DNA of 64,000 nt. It comes from Heterodontus francisci (Eukaryota). The notes below the pieces were generated by a model. It did no database searches. It was not told the DNA's origin and saw nothing but the letters and a program-made list of their open reading frames with translations. Positions within the stretch are counted from its first letter, which is position 1, and every line of letters begins with the position of its first letter. A program made the position numbers and the translations under genes. Shown here piece by piece: positions 9,875 through 53,715 of the stretch. The DNA lies in contig NC_090400.1 of assembly GCF_036365525.1 (NCBI RefSeq), forward strand, positions 53,697,663 to 53,761,662, given 5' to 3'.

Positions 9875-11510
9875 TTTTTTTTTCTTTGGCCTCCTTATCT
9901 CGAGAGACAATGGGTAAGCGCCTGGAGGTGGTCAGTGGTGTGTGGAGCAGCGCCTGGAGTGGCTATAAAGGCCAATTCTAGAGTCACAGGCTCTTCCACA
10001 GGTGTTGCAGAAAAATTTGTTTGTCGGGGCTGTTACACAGTTGACTCTCCCCTTGCGCTTTTGTCTTTTTTCCTGCCAACTGCTAAGTCTCTTCGACTCG
10101 CCACACTTTAGCCCCGCCTTTATGGCTGCCCACCAGCTCTGGCGAACGCTGGCAACTGACTCCCACGACTTGTGATCAATGCCACACGACTTCATGTCGC
10201 GTTTGCAGACGTCTTTAAAGCGGAGACATGGACGGCCGATAGGTCTGATACCAATGGCGAGCTCGCTGTACAATGTGTCTTTGGGGATCCTGCCATCTTC
10301 CATGCGGCTCACATGGCCAAGCCATCTCAAGTGCCGCTGACTCAGTAGGGTGTATATGCTGGGGATGTTGGCCGCCTCGAGGACTTCTGTGTTGGAGATA
10401 CGGTCCTGCCACCTGATGCCAAGTATTCTCCGGAGGCAGCGAAGATGGAATGAATTGAGACGTCGCTCTTGGCTGACATACGTTTATTTATTTAGAGATA
10501 CAGCACTGAAACAGGCCCTTCGGCCCATCGAGTCTGTGCCGACCAACAACCACCCATTTATACTAACCCTACAGTAATCCCATATTCCCTATCACCTCCC
10601 TACACTAGGGGCAATTTACAACGGCCAATTTACCTATCACCTGCAAGTCTTTTGGATGTGGGAGGAAACCGGAGCACCCGGCAAAAACCCACGCAGACAC
10701 AGGGAGAACTTGCAAACTCCGCACAGGCAGTACCCAGAATCGAACCCGGGTCCCTGGAGCTGTGAGGCTGCGGTGCTAACCACTGCGCCACTGTGCCGCC
10801 CACGTTGTCCAGGCCTCGCTGCCATAGAGCAAGGTACTGGGGACACACTCGGACTTTTGTGTTCCGTGTCAGTGCGCCATTTTCCCACACTCTCTTGGCC
10901 AGTCTGGACATAGCAGTGGAAGCCTTTCCCATGCACTTGTTGATTTCTGCATCTAGAGACAGGTTACTGGTGATAGTTGAGCCTAGGTAGGTGAACTCTT
11001 GAACCACTTCCAGAGCGTGGTCGCCCATATTGATGGATGGAGCACTTCTGATGTCCTGCCCCATTGTGTTCGTTTTCTTGAGGCTGATGGTTAGGCCAAA
11101 TTCATTGCAGGCAGCCGCAAACCTGTCGATGAGACTCTGCAGACACTCTTCAGTGTGAGATGTTAAAGCAGTATCGTCAGCAAAGAGGAGTTCCCTGATG
11201 AGGACTTTCCGTACTTTGGACTTCGCTCTTAGACGGGCAAGGTTGAACAACCTGCCCCCTGATCTTGTGTGGAGGAAAATTCCTTCTTCAGAAGACTTGA
11301 ACGCATGTGAAAGCAGCAGGGAGAAGAAAATCCCAAAAAGTGTGGGTGCAAGAACACAGCCCTGTTTCACGCTACTCAGGATAGGAAAGGGGTCTGATGA
11401 GGTGCCGCCATGTTGAATTGTGCCTTTCATATTGTCATGGAATGAGGTGATGATACTTAGTCGCTTTGGTGGGCATCCAATTTTTTCTAGTAGTCTGAAG
11501 AGACCACGTC
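9875..11510 (-). mobile_element. RTE-clade LINE (RT plus C-terminal C2H2-like finger), 5'-truncated and interrupted by a SINE
   Basis: ORF 10630-11430: VKQGCVLAPTLFGIFF, LLFADD, EFTYLGS; ORF 9932-10330: RWLGHVSRMEDGRIPK...CNTCGRAC.SRIGLYSHSRRC. Confidence 0.95.
10483..10801 (-). mobile_element. tRNA-derived V-SINE (HE1-like), full length, nested in the RTE
   Basis: Box A TGGCGCAGTGG, box B GGTTCGATTC, V domain GGAGTTTGCAAGTTCTCCC...GGTGCTCCGGTTTCCTCCCAC, (TAAA)n tail; AACGT duplicated at the flanks. Confidence 0.93.
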
Positions 11511-17639: not shown

Positions 17640-19030
17640 CAACAACAGTAATATTGCATCTTTCATGTAGTAAAACATCCCAAGACGCCTCACAGGAACG
17701 TCATCAAACAAAATTTGACACCGAGCCACATAATGAGACATTAGGAGAGGTGACCAAAAGCTTACTCAAAGAGATAGGTTTTAAGGAGTGTCTTAAAGGA
17801 GGAGAGAAAGGTTAGGATGGAATTCAAGAGTTTGGGGCCTAGACAGCTGAAGGCACGGCCACCAATGGTGGAGTGATGAGAATTGGGGATGCACAAGAGG
17901 CCAGAATTGGATAAGCACAGAGATCTCGGAGGGTTGCAGGGCTGGAGGAGATCACAGAGATTGAGAGGGGCGAGGACATGGAGGGATTTGAAAATAAGGA
18001 TACAAATTTTAAAATTGAGGCAAACACGGAAATATTCAATGAATGGCCTGACACTGGGAAGTTCCGAAGAACAAAGGGACCTTGGCGTGTTTGTCCATAG
18101 ATCTCTGAAGGCAGAAGGGCAGGTTAATAGGGTGGTGAAAAAGGCATATGGGACAGTTGCCTTTATCAATCGAAGCATAGATTACAAAAGCAGGGAAATC
18201 ATGGTGATGTTGGAGTTGTACAGAACTTTGGTAAGGCCACAGCTGGAGTACTGTGTGCAATTCTGGTCGCCACATTATAGGAAGGATGTGATTGCATTGG
18301 AGGGGGTGCAGAGGCGATTCACCAGGATGTTGCCTGGGATGGAACATTTAAGCTATGAAGAGAGGTTGGATAGGCTTGGGTTGTTTTCACTGGAGCAGAG
18401 AAGACTGAGGGGTGACCTGATCGAGGTGTACAAGATTATGAGGGGCATGGACAGGGTGGATAGGGAGCAGCTGTTCCCCTTAGTTGAAGGGTCAGTTACG
18501 AGGGGTCACAAGTTTAAGGTGAGGGGCGGGAGGTTTAAGGGGGACTTGAAGAAGAACTTTTTTACCCAGAGGGTGGTGACGGTCTGGAATGCCCTGCCTG
18601 GGAGGGTGATAGATGCAGGTTGCCTCACATCCTTTAAGAAGTACCTGGATGAGCACTTGGCATGTCATAACATTCAAGGCTATGGGCCAAGTGCTGGCAA
18701 ATGGGATTAGGTAGACAGGTCAGGTGTTTTAATGCATCGGTGCAGACTCAATGGGCCGAAGGGCCTCTTCTGCACTGTATTATTCTGTGATTCTGTGTGA
18801 TTCTGTGATTCATTGCCGGATCGGGAGCCAATGTAGGTCAGCGAGCACAGGAGTGATGGCTGTGAGTTAGGAATATGGGCAGCAGAGTTTTGGATGAGCT
18901 CAAGTTTAGGAAGGGTGTAAGGTGGGAGGCCAGTCAGGAGAACATTGGATTAGTCAAGTCAAAAGGCAAGGATGAGGGTTTCAGCAGTAGATGAGCTGAG
19001 GCAGGGGAGGAGATGGGCAATGACACACAG
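17640..19030 (-). mobile_element. L2 LINE 3' portion interrupted by a CR1
   Basis: LNFKICILIFKSLHVLAP and IGGRAFSCLGPKL on minus; resumes after ~18810. Confidence 0.82.
18015..18810 (+). mobile_element. Young 5'-truncated CR1 LINE
   Basis: Uninterrupted frame QRDLGVFVH...LVRPQLEYCVQFWSPHYRKD...FFTQRVVTVWNALP; (GATTCTGT)n tail. Confidence 0.96.
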
Positions 19031-33923: not shown

Positions 33924-34612
33924 GTCAGCTGTGGTTCAGTGGATAACTCTTTGGGTCAGAAGGTTTTGGGTTCAAGACCTACTCCAGGGACTTGAGTATA
34001 AAATCTAGGCCGGCACTCCTAGGGCAGTACTGAGGGAGTGCTGCACTGTCAGAAGTGCCATTGTTTGGATAATGTAATGAGAAGCATTTTATGTTGTCCG
34101 ATGTGTGGAGTTCAGTTGATTGAAGATCTCAAACAGGTTTATTAAACAGCTAACAAGTATATTCAGTGCAGAGCTAACCATTTACAGGGTTTGCCTCTTG
34201 GTGTTACAGTTACAGAGTGAGACTGGCATGTAGTCACAAGACTGCATCCTGGTACACAGCTCATTAGCATGCGAAGATCTTCAAGGGATATCACTCTTCA
34301 AGGCAATCACACAACCGATAAAATGTTAAACCGAGGTCCTGTCAGCCCTCTCAGGTACACATAAAAGACTATTATTTCAAAGAAGAGCAGTAGCGTATTC
34401 TCTGATGCTTTGGTGAATATTTATCCCTCAACCAACTCCTAAATCAGATTACCTGGTCATTATCACATTGCTGTTTGTGGGATCTTGCTGTGTCCAAATT
34501 GGCTGCAGCCTTTTCCTACGTTGCAACGGTGACTACACTTCCAAAAAGTAATTAATTGGCTGTAAAGTGCTTTGAGATATCATGAGGTCATGAAAGGCAC
34601 TATATAAATGCA
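33924..34612 (+). mobile_element. DeuSINE (SacSINE1-like) interrupted by a solo LTR
   Basis: Head, GAGGGAGTGCTGCACTGTC, Deu core, TATATAAATGCAA tail. Confidence 0.88.
34073..34316 (-). mobile_element. Solo LTR of the same family as the myc-carrying element
   Basis: Reverse complement matches 52339-52596 (GATTGCCTT.AAGAG, GTACCAGGATGCAGTC, AACTGTAACACC, AATAAACCTGTTTGA, CTCATTACA); 5-bp TSD GATAA at 34068-34072 and 34317-34321. Confidence 0.92.
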
Positions 34613-38230: not shown

Positions 38231-39318
38231 TAGAATTAGAATTAGAACATTACAGCGCAGTACAGGCCCTTCGGCCCTCGATGTTGCGCCGACCTGTGAA
38301 ACCATCTGACCTACACTATTCCATTTTCATCCATATGTCTATCCAATGACCACTTAAATGCCCTTAAAGTTGGCGAATCTACTACTGCTGCAGGCAGGGC
38401 GTTCCACGCCCCTACTACTCTCTGAGTAAAGAAACTACCTCTCACATCTGTCCTATATCTATCACCCCTCAACTTGAAGCTATGTCCCCTCGTGTTTGCC
38501 ATCACCATCCGAGGAAAAAGACGCTCACTATCCACCCTATCTAACCCTCTGATTATCTTATATGTCTCTATTAAGTCACCTCTCCTCCTCCTTCTCTCCA
38601 ACGAAAACAACCTCAAGTCCCTCAGCCTTTCCTCGTAAGACCTTCCCTCCATACCAGGCAACATCCTAGTAAATCTCCTCTGCACCCTTTCCATAGCTTC
38701 CACATCCTTCCTATAATGCGGTGACCAGAACTGCACGCAATACTCCAGGTGCGGTCTCACCAGAGTTTTGTACAGCTGCAGCATGGCCTCGTGGCTCCGA
38801 AACTCGATCCCCCTACTAATAAAAGCTAACACACCATATGCCTTCTTAACAGCCCTATTAACCTGGGTAGCAACCTTCAGGGATTTATGCACCTGGACAC
38901 CAAGATCTCTCTGTTCATCTACACTACCAAGAATCTTCCCATTAGCCCAGTACTCTGCATTCCTGTTACTCCTTCCAAAGTGAATCACTTCACACTTTTC
39001 CGCATTAAACTCCATTTGCCATCTCTCAGCCCAGCTCTGCAGCCTATCTATGTCCCTCTGTACCCTACAACATCCTTCGGCACTATCCACAACTCCACTG
39101 ACCTTAGTGTCATCTGCAAATTTACTAACCCACCCTTCTACACCCTCTTCCAGGTCATTTATAAAAATGACAAACAGCAGTGGCCCCAAAACAGATCCTT
39201 GCGGTACACCACTAGTAACTAAACTCCAGGATGAACATTTGCCATCAACCACCACCCTCTGTCTTCTTTCAGCTAGCCAATTTCTGATCCAAAGCTCTAA
39301 ATCACCTTCAACCCCATA
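38231..39318 (-). mobile_element. Young 5'-truncated CR1 LINE with uninterrupted RT C-terminal frame
   Basis: ORF 38311-39255: SGVPQGSVLGPLLFVIFINDL, KFADDTK, RPHLEYCVQFWSP; (TTCTAA)n tail. Confidence 0.97.
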
Positions 39319-39422
39319 ATAGCATGAAATATATGGGGGTTAATATAAGGGACATTAGGATGAATGTGTTACAGTGAAAATGTTGCTTTGACCAATCTTC
39401 AGTGCATGCCTGGCATTTTTAG

Positions 39423-42421: not shown

Positions 42422-43572
42422 TGTCAACTGTAGCTTGATGGGTTGCTCTCTTACCTCTGAGCTTGAAAGGTCATGGGTTCAAGCCCCATTCCAGGGACTT
42501 GAAGTGTGTGGGCAGACATTCTCATGCAGTATTAAGGGAGTGCTGTCTTTTGGATGTGATATTAAACTAAGACCTTATTTTCCCTCTCAGATGGATGCAA
42601 GAGATTCCATGGCACTATTCTGAAGAAAAGTAGGGGAGTTGTGTGGTGGCCAATATTTACCCCTCAACCAACATTGTTAAAAGCACATGATTTTGTAATT
42701 TATCTTGTTGTATACAATCTGGCTGCTGTGTTACAACAGTGACAACAGTTACAACAGGCCCAGAGAGTGTGGGAAAATGGTGCACTGACACAGAACACAA
42801 AAGTCCGAGTGTATCAAGCCTGTGTCCTCAGTACCTTGCTCTATGGCAGCGAGGCCTGGACAACGTATGTCAGCCAAGAGCGACGTCTCAATTCATTCCA
42901 TCTTCGCTGCCTCCGGAGAATACTTGGCATCAGGTGGCAGGACCGTATCTCCAACACAGAAGTCCTTGAGGCGGCCAACATCCCCAGCTTATACACACTA
43001 CTGAGTCAGCGGCACTTGAGATGGCTTGGCCATGTGAGCCGCATGGAAGATGGCAGGATCTCCAAAGACACATTGTACAGCGAGCTCGTCACTGGTATCA
43101 GACCCACCGGCCGTCCATGTCTCCGCTTTAAAGACGTCTGCAAACACGACATGAAATCCTGTGACATTGATCACAAGTCGTGGGAGTCAGTTGCCAGCGT
43201 TCGCCAGAGCTGGTGGGCAGCCATAAAGGCGGGGCTAAAGTGTGGCGAGTCGAAGAGACTCAGCAGTTGGCAGGAAAAAAGACAGAGGCGCAAGGGGAGA
43301 GCCAACTGTGTAACAGCCCCGACAATCAAATTTTTCTGCAGCACCTGTGGAAGAGCCTGTCACTCTAGTATTGGCCTTTATAGCCACTCCAGGCGCTGCT
43401 TCACAAACCACTGACCACCTCCAGGCGCTTACCCATTGTCTCTCGAGATAAGGAGGCCAAAGACAGACAGTTACAACAGTGACTACACTTCAAAAGTACT
43501 TCATTGGCTGTAAAGCACTTTGGGACATCCTGAGGACATGAAAGGTGCTATATAAATGCAAGTCCTTCCTTT
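42422..43572 (+). mobile_element. DeuSINE (SacSINE1-like) interrupted by an RTE
   Basis: Head at ~42422-42500; tail resumes TTACAACAGTGACTACACTTCAAAAG at 43471. Confidence 0.82.
42758..43466 (+). mobile_element. RTE LINE 3' fragment with uninterrupted frame
   Basis: ORF 42767-43414; 13-bp TSD ACAGTTACAACAG at 42745-42757 and 43467-43479. Confidence 0.96.
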
Positions 43573-48690: not shown

Positions 48691-49251
48691 TATAAATACT
48701 CTGACTACAGGAGCAGGTCAGAGGCTGGGAATTCTGCAGTGAGTATCTCACCTCTTGACTCCCCAAAGCCTTTCCAGCATCTACAAGGCACAAGTCAGGA
48801 GTATGATGGAATAATCCCCACTTGCCTGGATCAGTGCAGCTCCAACAGCACTCAAGAAGCTCAACACCATCTAGGACAAAGCATCCCATTTGATTGGCAC
48901 CCCATCCAGCACCTTAAACATTCACTCCCTCCACCACCAGCACACAGAGGCTGGAGTGTATACTTTGTATGATTGCCTTTAAGAGTAATGTCCCTTTAAG
49001 ATTTTAGTAAGTTAATGAGCTGAGTACCAGAATGAGTGACTCGGAGCCAGAGTCACTCTGCAACTGTAACACCCAGAGTAAGGTTCTGTAAATAGTTAGC
49101 TCTGTATTGTATATAATAGTCTAGCTGTAAGTAAACCTGTTTGAGATCTTCAAACAACTGGACTGCACACATCTCATTTATGTTGCATCAGAACACATAA
49201 AAGAACTCATTATATGGTAGCAGCTGTGGTGAGAAGAATAAAGTCTAGATT

Positions 49252-49967
49252 TTGCCGAAAATAGAAACATGTTGTCGAAGCTTTTCGTCTTGCACTCATC
49301 AGGACAATCACAGGAATAACCAATGTAAGGGAAAACAGCAACTTATACTGCATGAGAAGAGTGTGCTGATTGGTTGGCAAGTGAACTCTGATTGGTAGAG
49401 ACGTTGCCATGGAGAATGCACCAATTTACAGTGACTTACAGTTAACTGCCAAGCTTTGTTTAAAAGTTAAACCAGGCAGCTTGACTCTGATTAGTCAAGG
49501 CATTACCCTGAGGAATGAACCAGTGAATGGCTGTCACTTATTTTGTTCAGCTGAAACAGGTGCAATGTTTGCACATATTCTTTCTGTCTGCAAAGAACAG
49601 GGCCCTGTGTATTAATATATGGAGCTTCCAGTACGCGCAAATGCACCACACTGCAAGCCCTACTGACAATCTTAAATTGGTTGCCAGCGTAATTCTTAAC
49701 ACACTGTGGATTATTTAGCAAATGTCCAATTGCGGAATCACATCGAATGTTGGACACTGTGTTTTGAGTTTTGCAAGCATGAGCTGGTTGGGTACAGCCC
49801 GTACCTTGCCCGTTGCAAATAGCAGAAAGGACATGTTGTTTGATATGTTCCGCCAGTCATTGGGACGTCCGGCCTATATACCTAGCATCACACTGGCATT
49901 GAAATTCATTATTACTTTACTCTTTTGTGTGATAGGCAGGACATCATTTTTGCTGCCGTCAACAGGG
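49252..49967 (-). mobile_element. Second Penelope-like family (GIY-YIG plus 3' end) nested in the LTR element
   Basis: Minus strand FQCQCDARYIGRTSQ*LAEHIKQH...SAIGHLLNNPQC...LRVLEAPYINTQGPVLCRQKE; terminal hammerhead. Confidence 0.85.
49272..49307 (-). ncRNA. Minimal type I hammerhead ribozyme
   Basis: TTGTC-CTGATGA-GT(GCAAG)AC-GAAA-AGCT-TC-GACAA: intact core, 5-bp stem I, palindromic AAGCTT stem III. Confidence 0.82.
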
Positions 49968-50377
49968 AAGATACGACTCCTTTCCCAAACTGATAGAGGT
50001 CGGCGCTATTACAGGAAGCATCTGTTTGAAAAATCACAGGAAAACACCAATCTCTGCAGAACATCATCCATGCAGCCTAAGTTTAAAAAAACATTAAACC
50101 ACTCGAGCATGAATAAGAGTTTCCATTCACAAAGCAACAGTAAAAGAAACCCATTAAAACCACTTGAGCGTGAAGAACATAAACAAACACTGAAAAAAGG
50201 TTATTGAACAGCTGTGTAAACAGAGAGGCTTAAGTACTGAAAGCAAGATAAAGCACAGAACTAGCAAACACCTGCTCCTGCCAATCAAAGTAGCTAGTCT
50301 AAATAACAGACAGTTTCTTAAAGAGGAAACAGTGCAGAGTCATAGAACAAGCTTTAAAGCAAAAGAACAGCAGAAAT

Positions 50378-51615
50378 ATGGATACCAAATTTCCCAGCAT
50401 GAACTGGAAGGCCTTGAATTTCCTATCCGAGTTCCAACTGTTCAAACAAAGAATACCATTATTCTTCACAGACTAAATAATTGTAGAACCAGAAAAACAG
50501 GCTGTAAAAATACTAATAGCAGTTGGAAATGAGGGATCACACAGAATCAACACATCTGGACTATCTGACGAGGACCAGAAAGATCCCACAAAGATAAGGA
50601 AAGTGCTAGAAGATCAGCTCCAATTACAAGTGAATTTTATAATTCACTGCCTGGAATTGATGTCTTGACAGGCAACAGCCACAGGAATCAATAGACCAGT
50701 TTGTCAGTGGATGCCATGGTAAAGGCAAAGAAACTGAACTGTCGGACCGAATAATGGAGCTAGTGATGGTATCGACACACCCATTGAAGCGTTTCAGAAA
50801 GACCTCTTGGGGAAAATGAAAGGTCACAGCATTGATGCGCTGCTGGAAGATGGCAGGAAATATGAACCCATTGTAGCTGGACAACAGCACCTGCAAGCAC
50901 TAGGTGCAGCCAACAGTATCGGCACCATAACCAGGTTGAAAAGAGCAAGCAAGCTGTGTGGTAAGTGCGGTCTGTCCCGCTCACAGCGAAAGTGCCCTGC
51001 ATTTCGTGACCAGTGCAAGGCGTGCGGTGCAAAAGGACACTGGGCCCACCTATGCAAGACATCTGACTCCAAAGATACAGCAGAAGCCACAGCAGGACAC
51101 AAACAAACAGAAGACAGGTGCAGCAACAGGGCAACAACAGCAAGAAGAGTGCCAGGGACCTGCGTAAATACAAGCCGATACATGAAATCCACAGCGAAAC
51201 AGACCTGAGACAATCAACCAGAAGACCAACAGGCATTCCACATTGTGAACCTGACACATCACATTGATGAAGTCAAATAACTGGAAGCTTTTGCCACTAT
51301 TAAAATCACGTGCCCAAATAAAGCTGGCAAACATACACTCAAGGTCAAGATTGACACCGGCGCTAGTGCAAATATCCTACCAGTCCGAATACTCAAAGAT
51401 ATGTACCGGAGTCGCTGGAAATCAATGATAAAACCGACAACTGCCAAGTTATCTGCATACAACGGGTCACCCATCCCTTACAGTGGCACACTAACAATGC
51501 AATGCAATTATGGCAAGTTGGCATGGAAACCACAAACATTCTACCCCGTAGACATGAGCGGACCAGCAATGGCAGAACTACCAGAGCGGAAGTACCTCAA
51601 CATCATAACTGTCAA
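50378..51615 (+). pseudogene. Retrotransposon gag-protease (disrupted)
   Basis: Zinc knuckles CGKCG...CPAFRDQCKACGAKGHWAHLC; aspartic protease KVKIDTGASANIL (GAC at 51353); LSAYNGSPIP..GTL; stops and frameshifts. Confidence 0.9.
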
Positions 51616-51676
51616 CAAGAGCATTGCCAAGGGGAAATCTCCAAGAACCAAAACCCGCTTGCAGACTCTGACCAGC

Positions 51677-52204
51677 ATCAAACGGTGCAGGCTGGAAACC
51701 CAGCAACAGCACAACCCAGCGCCTTCACTTCTGCTCTCTAGAGAACAGCACCACAACGAGCCAGAACGGACAGGTATCTCCATGAGATCAAGTACTCTTC
51801 CCCCAACAAGTCCTCAAGCTGGAGCCCCAAGATGTGGAGGATGAGGAGAGGCGAAGGACACCATAGACTTATGGCACAGAAAAAGGCCATTCAGCCCATC
51901 ATGTCTGCGCTGGCTGAAAAAACTAGCTGCACATTCTAATCCCACCTTCCAGCATCTGGTCCATAGCCTTGCAGGTTACAACACTTCAGGTGCATGTCCG
52001 GAAGAGGCAGAGGAGGAATGTCTGTTGGATCTTCGAGATGAGAATGGCAAGGCCTCAAAAGTGGTCATTTTGAGAAAAGCAACAGAGTATGTTAGCAGGC
52101 TGAAGGTAGAGCAACAGAAACTGAATGCAGAGAGGGAGAAACTTCACAAAGAACAGCAGTAGATGCGACACAATCTCCCCGAGCAAGAGTTGTCAAACCA
52201 CTGA
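51677..52204 (+). pseudogene. Captured MYC-family C-terminal fragment (Myc box IV-like, basic region, HLH, leucine zipper); most like the fish mych/N-myc type
   Basis: IKRCRLETQQQHNPA ~ LKRCH...HQHNYAAP; DVEDEERRRT; KRQRRN; CLLDLRDE; NGKASKVVILRKATEYVSRLKVEQQKLNAEREKL ~ NEKA(P/A/S)KVVILKKATEY; contains deletions, a stop and a CR1 insertion. Confidence 0.88.
51862..51995 (-). mobile_element. Short CR1-type 3' tail inserted in the myc basic region
   Basis: GCACAGAAAAAGGCCATTCAGCCCATC motif separates RRRT from (H)VRKRQRRN. Confidence 0.8.
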
Positions 52205-53715
52205 GATGATATACGGACTTTTGAGCCTCTATACTTGTAAATTTTAGAATCTATATTCCGTGTAACTAATTCTGATGTTATCTAATGTTATTTTTTTTAC
52301 TTTTAGCATACGAGACTTATCTTTGGAAAGAAAGGGGATGTTGTACGATTGCCTTTAAGAGCTATATCCCTTTAAGATCTTAATATGCAAATGACCCAAG
52401 TACCAGGATGCAGTCATGTGACTCAGAGCCAGAGTCACTCTGCAACTGTAACACCCAGTGTAAGATTTTGTAAAAAGTTAGCTCTGTACTGTATATAATA
52501 GTTTAGTTGTAAATAAACCTGTTTGAAATCTTTAACCAACTGGACTACACACATCTCATTTATGTTGCATCAAACAACATAAAATAACTCATTAGATATA
52601 CCATCTACAAGATGCACTACAGCAAGTCTCCAAGGCTCCTTCAACAGCACCTTCCAAACCCACGATGTCTACCACCCAGAAGAACAAGGGCAGCAGATGC
52701 ATGGGGAACACCACCACCAGCAAGTTCCCCTCCAAGCCACACACCATCCTGACTTGAACTATATCACCGTTCCTTCACTGTCCCTGGATCAAAATCCTGA
52801 AACTCCTTTCCTAACAGCACTGTGGGTGTACCTACCCCACATGGACTGCAGTGGTTCAAGAAGGCGGCTCACCATCACCTTCTCAAGGACAATTAGGGAT
52901 GGGCAATAAATATTGATCTTGCCAGTGATGCCCACATCCCACAAATGAATTAAAAAAGGCCCAAATTATAAGTTTTTATTTTGTTTAACTTCCTTTTTGG
53001 GACCAGAAAGAGCAGGAGTATTCATCCGTGCTCCACAGGGAAAACTTTGGCCTCCCCTACCCAAACATAAGAGCATGGCGGATGGCACCAACAGCCGACC
53101 TGCCACCTTCCGGCTCTTGGAGACCGCACAACTTTCCTGCCTCTTCCTGCCAACTTGGGGAAGAGATCAGTTGGCAGGATTTAAATGAGGTCAGGGAGTT
53201 CAAGTACCCCCGGCCTCTTTTGTGGAGCTGCGAGTGAGTTTCTAACTCACCTTACAGGAATTGGCCCAGAGTTAAAATGGGGATGATGAATTACTATGAA
53301 TTGGCCCTCTAATTTTTCCACACTTTCCTGTGGGAGTCAATCTCCACCTAAACCGTTCCACTGAGGGTGTGGCTGTGATCACATCACAGCCCTGTGAAGA
53401 ATGAGGGCTGTTAGTTTTCATTCTACCAGAATTTAAAATGGTACATTTCCTTCCTGCTCCTCATTTGCTTTTTCTCTCATAAGAATGGGAAATGAGAGTC
53501 AGATCAATCAGATCTCGGTCATCCAGTTCTTCTTTTAAGAATCTTTTTTCATCTACTCCCTGCTGAATCAGAAATTATCCCAGTTTAAGAACATGAGAAC
53601 ATTGGAACTAGGCACAGTAGTTGACAAGACAGCCCCTTGAGCCTGTGCTGCCAATCAATAAGATCATAGCTGACCTTTAACTTCAACTCCACTTTCCCAC
53701 CTGATCCCCATATCC

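Follow-up and report, generated by a model that had tools for sequence, protein, structure and literature searches.

The element at the locus

The stretch analyzed here, which we call the window, comprises 64,000 nucleotides (nt) of the shark Heterodontus francisci (contig NC_090400.1, positions 53,697,663 to 53,761,662), and its principal feature is a long terminal repeat (LTR) retroelement at 48964..52596 in which a segment of a MYC-family gene occupies the place of pol. An original prediction made from the window had proposed an element with these ends, two LTRs, a TATAC target-site duplication (TSD), a primer-binding site (PBS) and a polypurine tract (PPT), and all of these were found. The two TATAC copies (48959..48963 and 52597..52601, + strand) enclose a 5′ LTR (48964..49214, +), whose ends are decayed relative to the TGTTG...ATTACA of sister copies, and a 3′ LTR (52339..52596, +). 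The LTRs are 85–87% identical to each other. The PBS, led by TGG, lies immediately 3′ of the 5′ LTR (49215..49224, +), and the PPT was identified in the sequence at 52325..52338 (+).

Within these boundaries, gag (50378..51200, +) is followed by an aspartic protease and the beginning of the protease–reverse transcriptase (PR-RT) linker (51281..51618, +), the protease having DTG at 51353 and sharing the frame of gag. The predicted gag zinc knuckles (50957-51055) and DTG protease are present, but their Pfam scores are weak (best E 0.002 for the knuckles and 0.21 for the protease), and His is absent from the first knuckle. The myc segment begins at 51619, at what we call the class C switch point, where the join is in frame and 3 nt are shared. 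This start replaces the predicted one at IKRC. The segment is split by a 132-nt insertion in the basic region. The first part (51619..51861, +) corresponds to exon 3 of the host gene mych (host amino acids (aa) 201–285) and includes the nuclear localization signal (NLS) region, Myc box IV and the start of the basic region; the second (51994..52176, +) includes basic region, helix-loop-helix (HLH) and leucine zipper. In agreement with the prediction, the window copy is decayed: gag has stops and a frameshift, the first myc part is frameshifted, and the second has Lys at the position of a basic-region Glu, a deletion in the HLH and a stop in the zipper at 52160.

The 3′ switch point lies near 52176, and downstream of it the element's own 3′ region (52177..52324, +) consists of an integrase-tail remnant and an AT-rich 3′ untranslated region (UTR). 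The AT-rich stretch had been predicted to run into the PPT with no poly(A) tail, as it does (no A run exceeds 3), and it is element-derived rather than host 3′ UTR: it is 81–84% identical to all three pol-bearing copies tested, and the host 3′ UTR was unmatched.

The captured segment derives from mych

The identification of the segment in place of pol as a MYC-family basic HLH (bHLH)-zipper was borne out by several comparisons. Pfam HLH was matched with E 3e-4, PDB chains of human MYC with E 2.3e-7, and shark proteins annotated as "myelocytomatosis oncogene homolog" (mych) at 71–80%, the latter ranking above MYCN as nearest match. At the DNA level, matches between the window and host mych exon 3 have identities of 86% and 94% (E 1e-86 and 4e-49), and family copies are 89–90% identical to that exon. 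The host gene was located in the 6.0-Gb genome as a two-exon match to protein P0005, a Heterodontus francisci entry, at G000:C16:100016366-100019167, and both exons translate with 100% identity to that protein. On the strength of these alignments the captured piece is assigned to the host paralogue mych.

The capture spans host aa 121–356, the longest captured form beginning at aa 121. The N-terminal region of MYC holds the transactivation domain (TAD) with MB0, MBI and MBII, according to the description in PMC7780693. In the host protein a box-II-like motif is found at aa 100, upstream of the start of the capture, so the N-terminal transactivation boxes are absent even from the longest form.

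Seven chimeric gene models annotated in this species as "N-myc-like" or "myc-like" (P0001, P0002, P0006, P0007, P0009, P0010 and P0011) look like copies of the element rather than mych paralogues, as judged from their sequences. Element copies thus explain several such annotations, and they may confound the mapping of reads to mych in these sharks. A chimeric query listed 120 proteins, in which every chimeric model belonged to H. francisci and each other shark or ray was represented by a single mych, a weak indication that the chimeric family is restricted to the H. francisci lineage.

A dispersed family and its pol-bearing parent

Copy numbers were obtained from junction patterns searched genome-wide, allowing three mismatches for the 3′ (myc/integrase-tail) junction, three for the class C and class A 5′ junctions and two for class B. 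The 3′ junction occurred 1,839 times, and the 5′ junctions 987 (class C), 295 (class B) and 206 (class A) times, with no matches to the control patterns. The value of 1,839 is a floor because only 38 of 58 sampled copies passed the 3′ pattern, and the family likely totals a few thousand copies. Looser candidate counts of 3,851, 17,478 and 3,782 came from preliminary searches and are not taken as copy numbers.

The prediction had named a case that would have undone it, a myc piece confined to this one locus with sister elements having normal pol, and that case is now excluded. A query across the protease–myc junction gave 40 scored matches, the window and 39 others of 84–87% identity on many contigs, all at full or nearly full length, and the myc piece was present in 29/29 sisters that were fetched (24 with a 3′ LTR within the fetched flank). 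A query with the host protein gave 112 scored matches, of which two were the host exons; among 28 of the other 110 that were fetched, gag or protease lay upstream in every case and LTR sequence downstream in 27. Elements free of insertions are ~3.1–3.3 kb long. The flanks differ between copies. Of 10 elements in which a TSD could be called, 6 have one of 5 bp with no more than one mismatch (chance 0.016 each); a further 11 were uncallable. In a second organism (organism B), contigs from two studies bridge the protease–myc junction (51427-51713) without gaps, and one contig bridges myc to the LTR (52087-52394); contigs of a third (organism C) did not extend 31 letters to each side of a junction and were left uncounted.

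Dispersal of this kind bears on the possibility that a LINE-made processed pseudogene of mych inserted into a dead element, its later multiplication being due to DNA duplication or assembly error. In its favor, the genome is LINE-rich, and the long branch common to two sampled copies from one contig suggests some conversion or duplication. However, the copies have individual flanks and TSDs and are scattered over dozens of contigs, independent runs from another organism also span the junction, and there is neither poly(A), host UTR nor internal TSD around a myc segment that replaces pol rather than interrupting it. We consider this explanation refuted.

Two further variations among the copies were noted. 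L020 and L055 have their 3′ LTR in two or three tandem copies, and downstream of the 3′ switch in L032-L059 the integrase tail has undergone several nested deletions, so that the zipper is followed by short C-terminal tails that differ.

The genome also contains a pol-bearing parent whose LTRs are the same. An uninterrupted RT-start pattern (one mismatch) occurred at 691 places, and all four pol-bearing loci that were fetched share LTR and gag or protease sequence with the chimera and have no mych. These four loci are decayed, and pieced together they provide RVT_1, RT_RNaseH, Integrase_H2C2 and rve in the order PR-RT-RNase H-integrase. Two other routes to the parent were less productive: among 20 checked matches to the integrase tail, 19 had mych upstream and one a LINE, and a search with the protease protein gave one partial match only. 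The PR-RT-RNase H-integrase order also occurs in BEL/Pao elements and retroviruses. Our classification of the family as a Ty3/gypsy LTR retrotransposon is a label by anatomy and Pfam families, the former comprising paired LTRs with TG...CA ends, a PBS, a PPT and a short TSD. In the two parents examined, ~600 nt separate the integrase tail from the 3′ LTR, which is too short for env.

Capture from spliced mRNA, probably by template switching

In all 28 non-host long copies, exons 2 and 3 of mych are directly joined and the ~1.7-kb intron is missing; the source was therefore a spliced RNA. Each switch point shows short similarity between the parent and mych. The class A switch occurs at GGATGCA, in which 7 nt are identical, 8 of 9 nt are identical at the class B joint and 3 nt at the class C joint, all three being in frame. 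The 3′ switch leads, again without loss of frame, into the integrase tail at a short AAAT match with an in-register 8-nt identity. The pattern is that of an LTR-mediated retrocopy: an intron-less piece of mRNA replaces the internal open reading frames (ORFs), dispersed copies share switch points, and a pol-bearing partner exists. Thus, the proposal that a myc-family transcript was captured by template switching is upheld, and so, from the absence of pol, is mobilization in trans.

One 3′ switch and nine differences from the host gene are common to all classes, which suggests one capture followed by two deletions, and a tree of 57 copies forms a ladder from class A, with copies keeping the Glu, through B to C. 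In that tree, L031 and L034, which lie on contig C8 and belong to different 5′ classes, share one long branch, a hint that copies have undergone gene conversion or recombined with one another.

We consider it close to certain that the segment was captured from mRNA and that the chimera spread as a non-autonomous element. A gypsy-type element exchanged its RT, RNase H and most of its integrase for spliced mych coding sequence while retaining its LTRs, PBS, PPT, gag and protease, and the resulting chimera was copied to at least 1,800 sites. Two later in-frame deletions at short repeats produced the shorter, more numerous forms, including the class C copy of the window. We propose that there was a single capture, in which RT switched template twice on a co-packaged mRNA. 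Since the chimera has no pol, RT and integrase would have been supplied in trans by the pol-bearing relatives.

Loss of the DNA-reading Glu and the possible role of the captured segment

Cellular Myc proteins and the chimera differ at one position of the basic region. Glu was present in all 8 aligned cellular Myc proteins and Lys in all 7 annotated chimeric models, and exact patterns found genome-wide numbered 488 for Lys and 34 for Glu, one of the latter being the host gene itself, so that 488 of 521 exact-matching copies (~94%) have Lys. In the sampled copies, the Glu was retained in 9/56 and a basic-region His in 22/57. By its ExxR spacing, the Lys of the chimera appears equivalent to that of E47 p.E555K, a change described in PMC11286708 as breaking E-box contacts and as strongly dominant-negative, with dimerization retained. 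Most of the amplified copies are probably unable to read DNA.

Selection was analyzed over aa 202–357 in 57 copies, with changes binned by frequency. Omega was 0.7–1.2 in five of six frequency bins, and the changes diagnostic of class C versus class A were 6 non-synonymous and 0 synonymous. Divergence between classes by codon position was flat over myc (0.158/0.147/0.156), whereas the protease showed an excess at third positions (0.159/0.162/0.233). No purifying selection was seen on the myc segment, in a test of low power. The myc part is free of stops and frameshifts in 8/57 copies, and in 1/58 the reading frame is uninterrupted between protease and zipper over the fetched stretch.

We favor, at a probability of roughly two in three, the interpretation that the captured myc is a disarmed passenger. 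The segment would have served mainly to shorten the element and would have been without a transactivation domain from the outset. The E-box-reading Glu may then have been lost early in the source lineage, either by drift or through a germ-cell cost of a Myc that binds DNA but is dead for activation, and the disarmed form would have given rise to the great majority of copies in a family that is now old and decayed.

The original prediction had likened the element to the avian MC29-type viruses. The comparison holds for layout, as MC29 is likewise a defective genome with a single gag-myc fusion that needs a helper (PMC13431497). It fails for function. A functional analogue, in which the fusion promoted proliferation or survival of carrier cells and spread as a result, could draw on the survival role reported for mych in the early zebrafish embryo (PMC3958507) and on the 6 of 17 class A copies, the earliest-branching ones, that keep the Glu. 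It is opposed by the absence of the TAD region with its boxes (PMC7780693) from every capture, by the ~94% of exact-matching copies without Glu and by the absence of a purifying signal. The domain content would also argue against transforming activity, and we regard such an analogue as very improbable and largely refuted.

Several observations sit less comfortably with this favored account of capture, spread and a passenger cargo. The frame is kept at all four switch points, for which the odds would be 1 in 81 were they independent and random, although a direct check of the frame found the same frame in only 10/20 copies, and box IV, the NLS region and the bHLH-zipper have been spared by every deletion, when pure stuffer would need neither box IV nor the bHLH-zipper. 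The most-shared frequency bin has an omega of 0.29, though the host branch is mixed into it, and the selection test is of low power, with few internal-branch changes that are swamped by decay after insertion. Three basic Arg residues are retained in 53–56 of 56–57 copies, and of only 14 lineage-shared non-CpG changes in 156 codons, two affect base-reading residues, of which there are three (p 0.02, post hoc). The tree is weakly supported (3 nodes at ≥80) and includes the Glu column, and 4 of the 10 callable elements have no clear TSD.

Some of these observations could be accommodated if the segment acted as a decoy for Max. An in-frame Gag-PR-Myc product would release a bHLH-zipper that lacks activation and is blind to DNA, Max-dependent repression would be loosened in germ or early embryonic cells, and Lys lineages would have out-copied others. 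The reading frames at the junctions, the domains that survived, the prevalence of Lys and the 8 copies still open over myc would fit such a role, as would two findings elsewhere: the equivalent Glu-to-Lys change makes E47 a potent dominant negative that still dimerizes (PMC11286708), and loss of Max is reported in PMC4820925 to activate germline and meiotic genes via PRC1.6. Conversely, the dimer surfaces show no purifying signal (retention 0.865 in helix 2 and 0.885 in the zipper versus 0.891 in the linker, with omega ~1), and any neutral change can reach high frequency through one source lineage. Furthermore, a decoy protein would probably aid helpers and competitors equally, which would weaken selection on its carrier. 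Overall, we consider a decoy a minority explanation, conceivable but unlikely. The broader proposition, that the family would constitute a transposon-borne anti-Myc/Max factor, a DNA-blind Max-binding decoy carried in frame in thousands of copies and targeting germ-line repression, seems to us a little more doubtful again. The data also raise a testable question: was loss of DNA binding required before a captured Myc could spread in the germ line?

Age of the family

The LTR pairs have a median divergence (K2P) of 0.12 (18 pairs, range 0.084–0.19, a set with one alignment of only 50 nt and several that extend past the LTR ends), and the window pair has a divergence of 0.14. Tip lengths in the myc tree are ~0.064 without CpG, in a sample of copies biased to the best-scoring matches. 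Given the slow shark clock, for which we rely on the rate quoted in PMC10587355, these values mean an age of tens of millions of years or more. We rejected an absolute date, since 0.06 substitutions per site and a rate of 7e-10 per generation (PMC10587355) imply ~9e7 generations, a figure not to be taken literally.

Other features of the window

Two insertions are private to the window copy and absent from all 20 sister elements compared. The larger (49244..49960, approximate ends, ~720 nt, no strand assigned) lies in the leader and is covered by 0/20 sisters. It matched no Pfam family, and its minus strand is presumably a Penelope-like endonuclease tail. The smaller is the 132-nt repeat within the basic region (51862..51993, no strand assigned), which is probably LINE-like. 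It is a high-copy repeat, with a read depth ~10x that of its flanks in 4/4 runs, and a partial second copy is found at 18668-18710. The minus strand at 34100-34315 carries another LTR of this element family, 79% identical to the 3′ LTR; it has no internal sequence in the window and is probably a solo LTR. Elsewhere, LINE-type reverse transcriptase fragments were observed at 10633-11508, 38314-39339 and 42743-43411 (RVT_1 in two, DUF6451 in one), and the extreme GC skew (-0.98) of positions 1-1000 is probably due to a simple repeat. A comparison of the window with Rfam gave no match.

Comparison with known systems

We found no description of this myc-carrying shark family in the literature searched; Repbase, Dfam and supplements were outside that search, and a named consensus may exist there. 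Regarding the cargo, the nearest parallels are E47 p.E555K (PMC11286708) and Omomyc (PMC7780693), which are dimerizing bHLH or bHLH-zipper proteins without normal activation, E555K being the same change at the same ExxR position. The action of both was shown by experiment, whereas the shark cargo is known from its sequence.

The avian viruses MC29, CMII, OK10 and MH2 resemble the shark element in having a defective, helper-dependent genome in which cell-derived myc is fused to gag. They differ in that, as presented in PMC13431497, they are infectious retroviruses selected in tumors, whereas the shark element is a gypsy-type element of the germ line, apparently with no room for env, whose mych cargo has no transactivation domain and in most copies no DNA-reading Glu. 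Oncogene transduction is otherwise known mainly from tumor viruses. Here three stages of the chimera survive together with its parent element and the host gene, so that a transduction can be read as a dated evolutionary series.

The LTR-mediated retrocopies of Tan et al. 2016 (PMC5131818) are the closest match in mechanism. In these, a partial mRNA replaces the internal ORFs with microsimilarity at both switch points and no poly(A), and both LTRs are retained, which permits further copying as a non-autonomous element. Maize Bs1, described in the same report, is likewise an LTR element carrying host gene sequence in copies with common switch points, but it is a plant element of one to five copies with pieces of three genes. 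The mechanism of capture is thus already published, and it is the cargo, the scale and the series of forms that appear undescribed in the literature searched. The retrocopies compared from that report occupy one or a few insertion sites, while the shark family numbers 1,839 copies or more, about equal to or above its pol-bearing parent, all of its junctions are in frame, and its cargo is a domain of a proto-oncogene family. Capture of host genes by LTR elements has been known from cases of a handful of copies; in H. francisci it has placed a Myc-family bHLH-zipper in thousands of copies in a vertebrate germ line.

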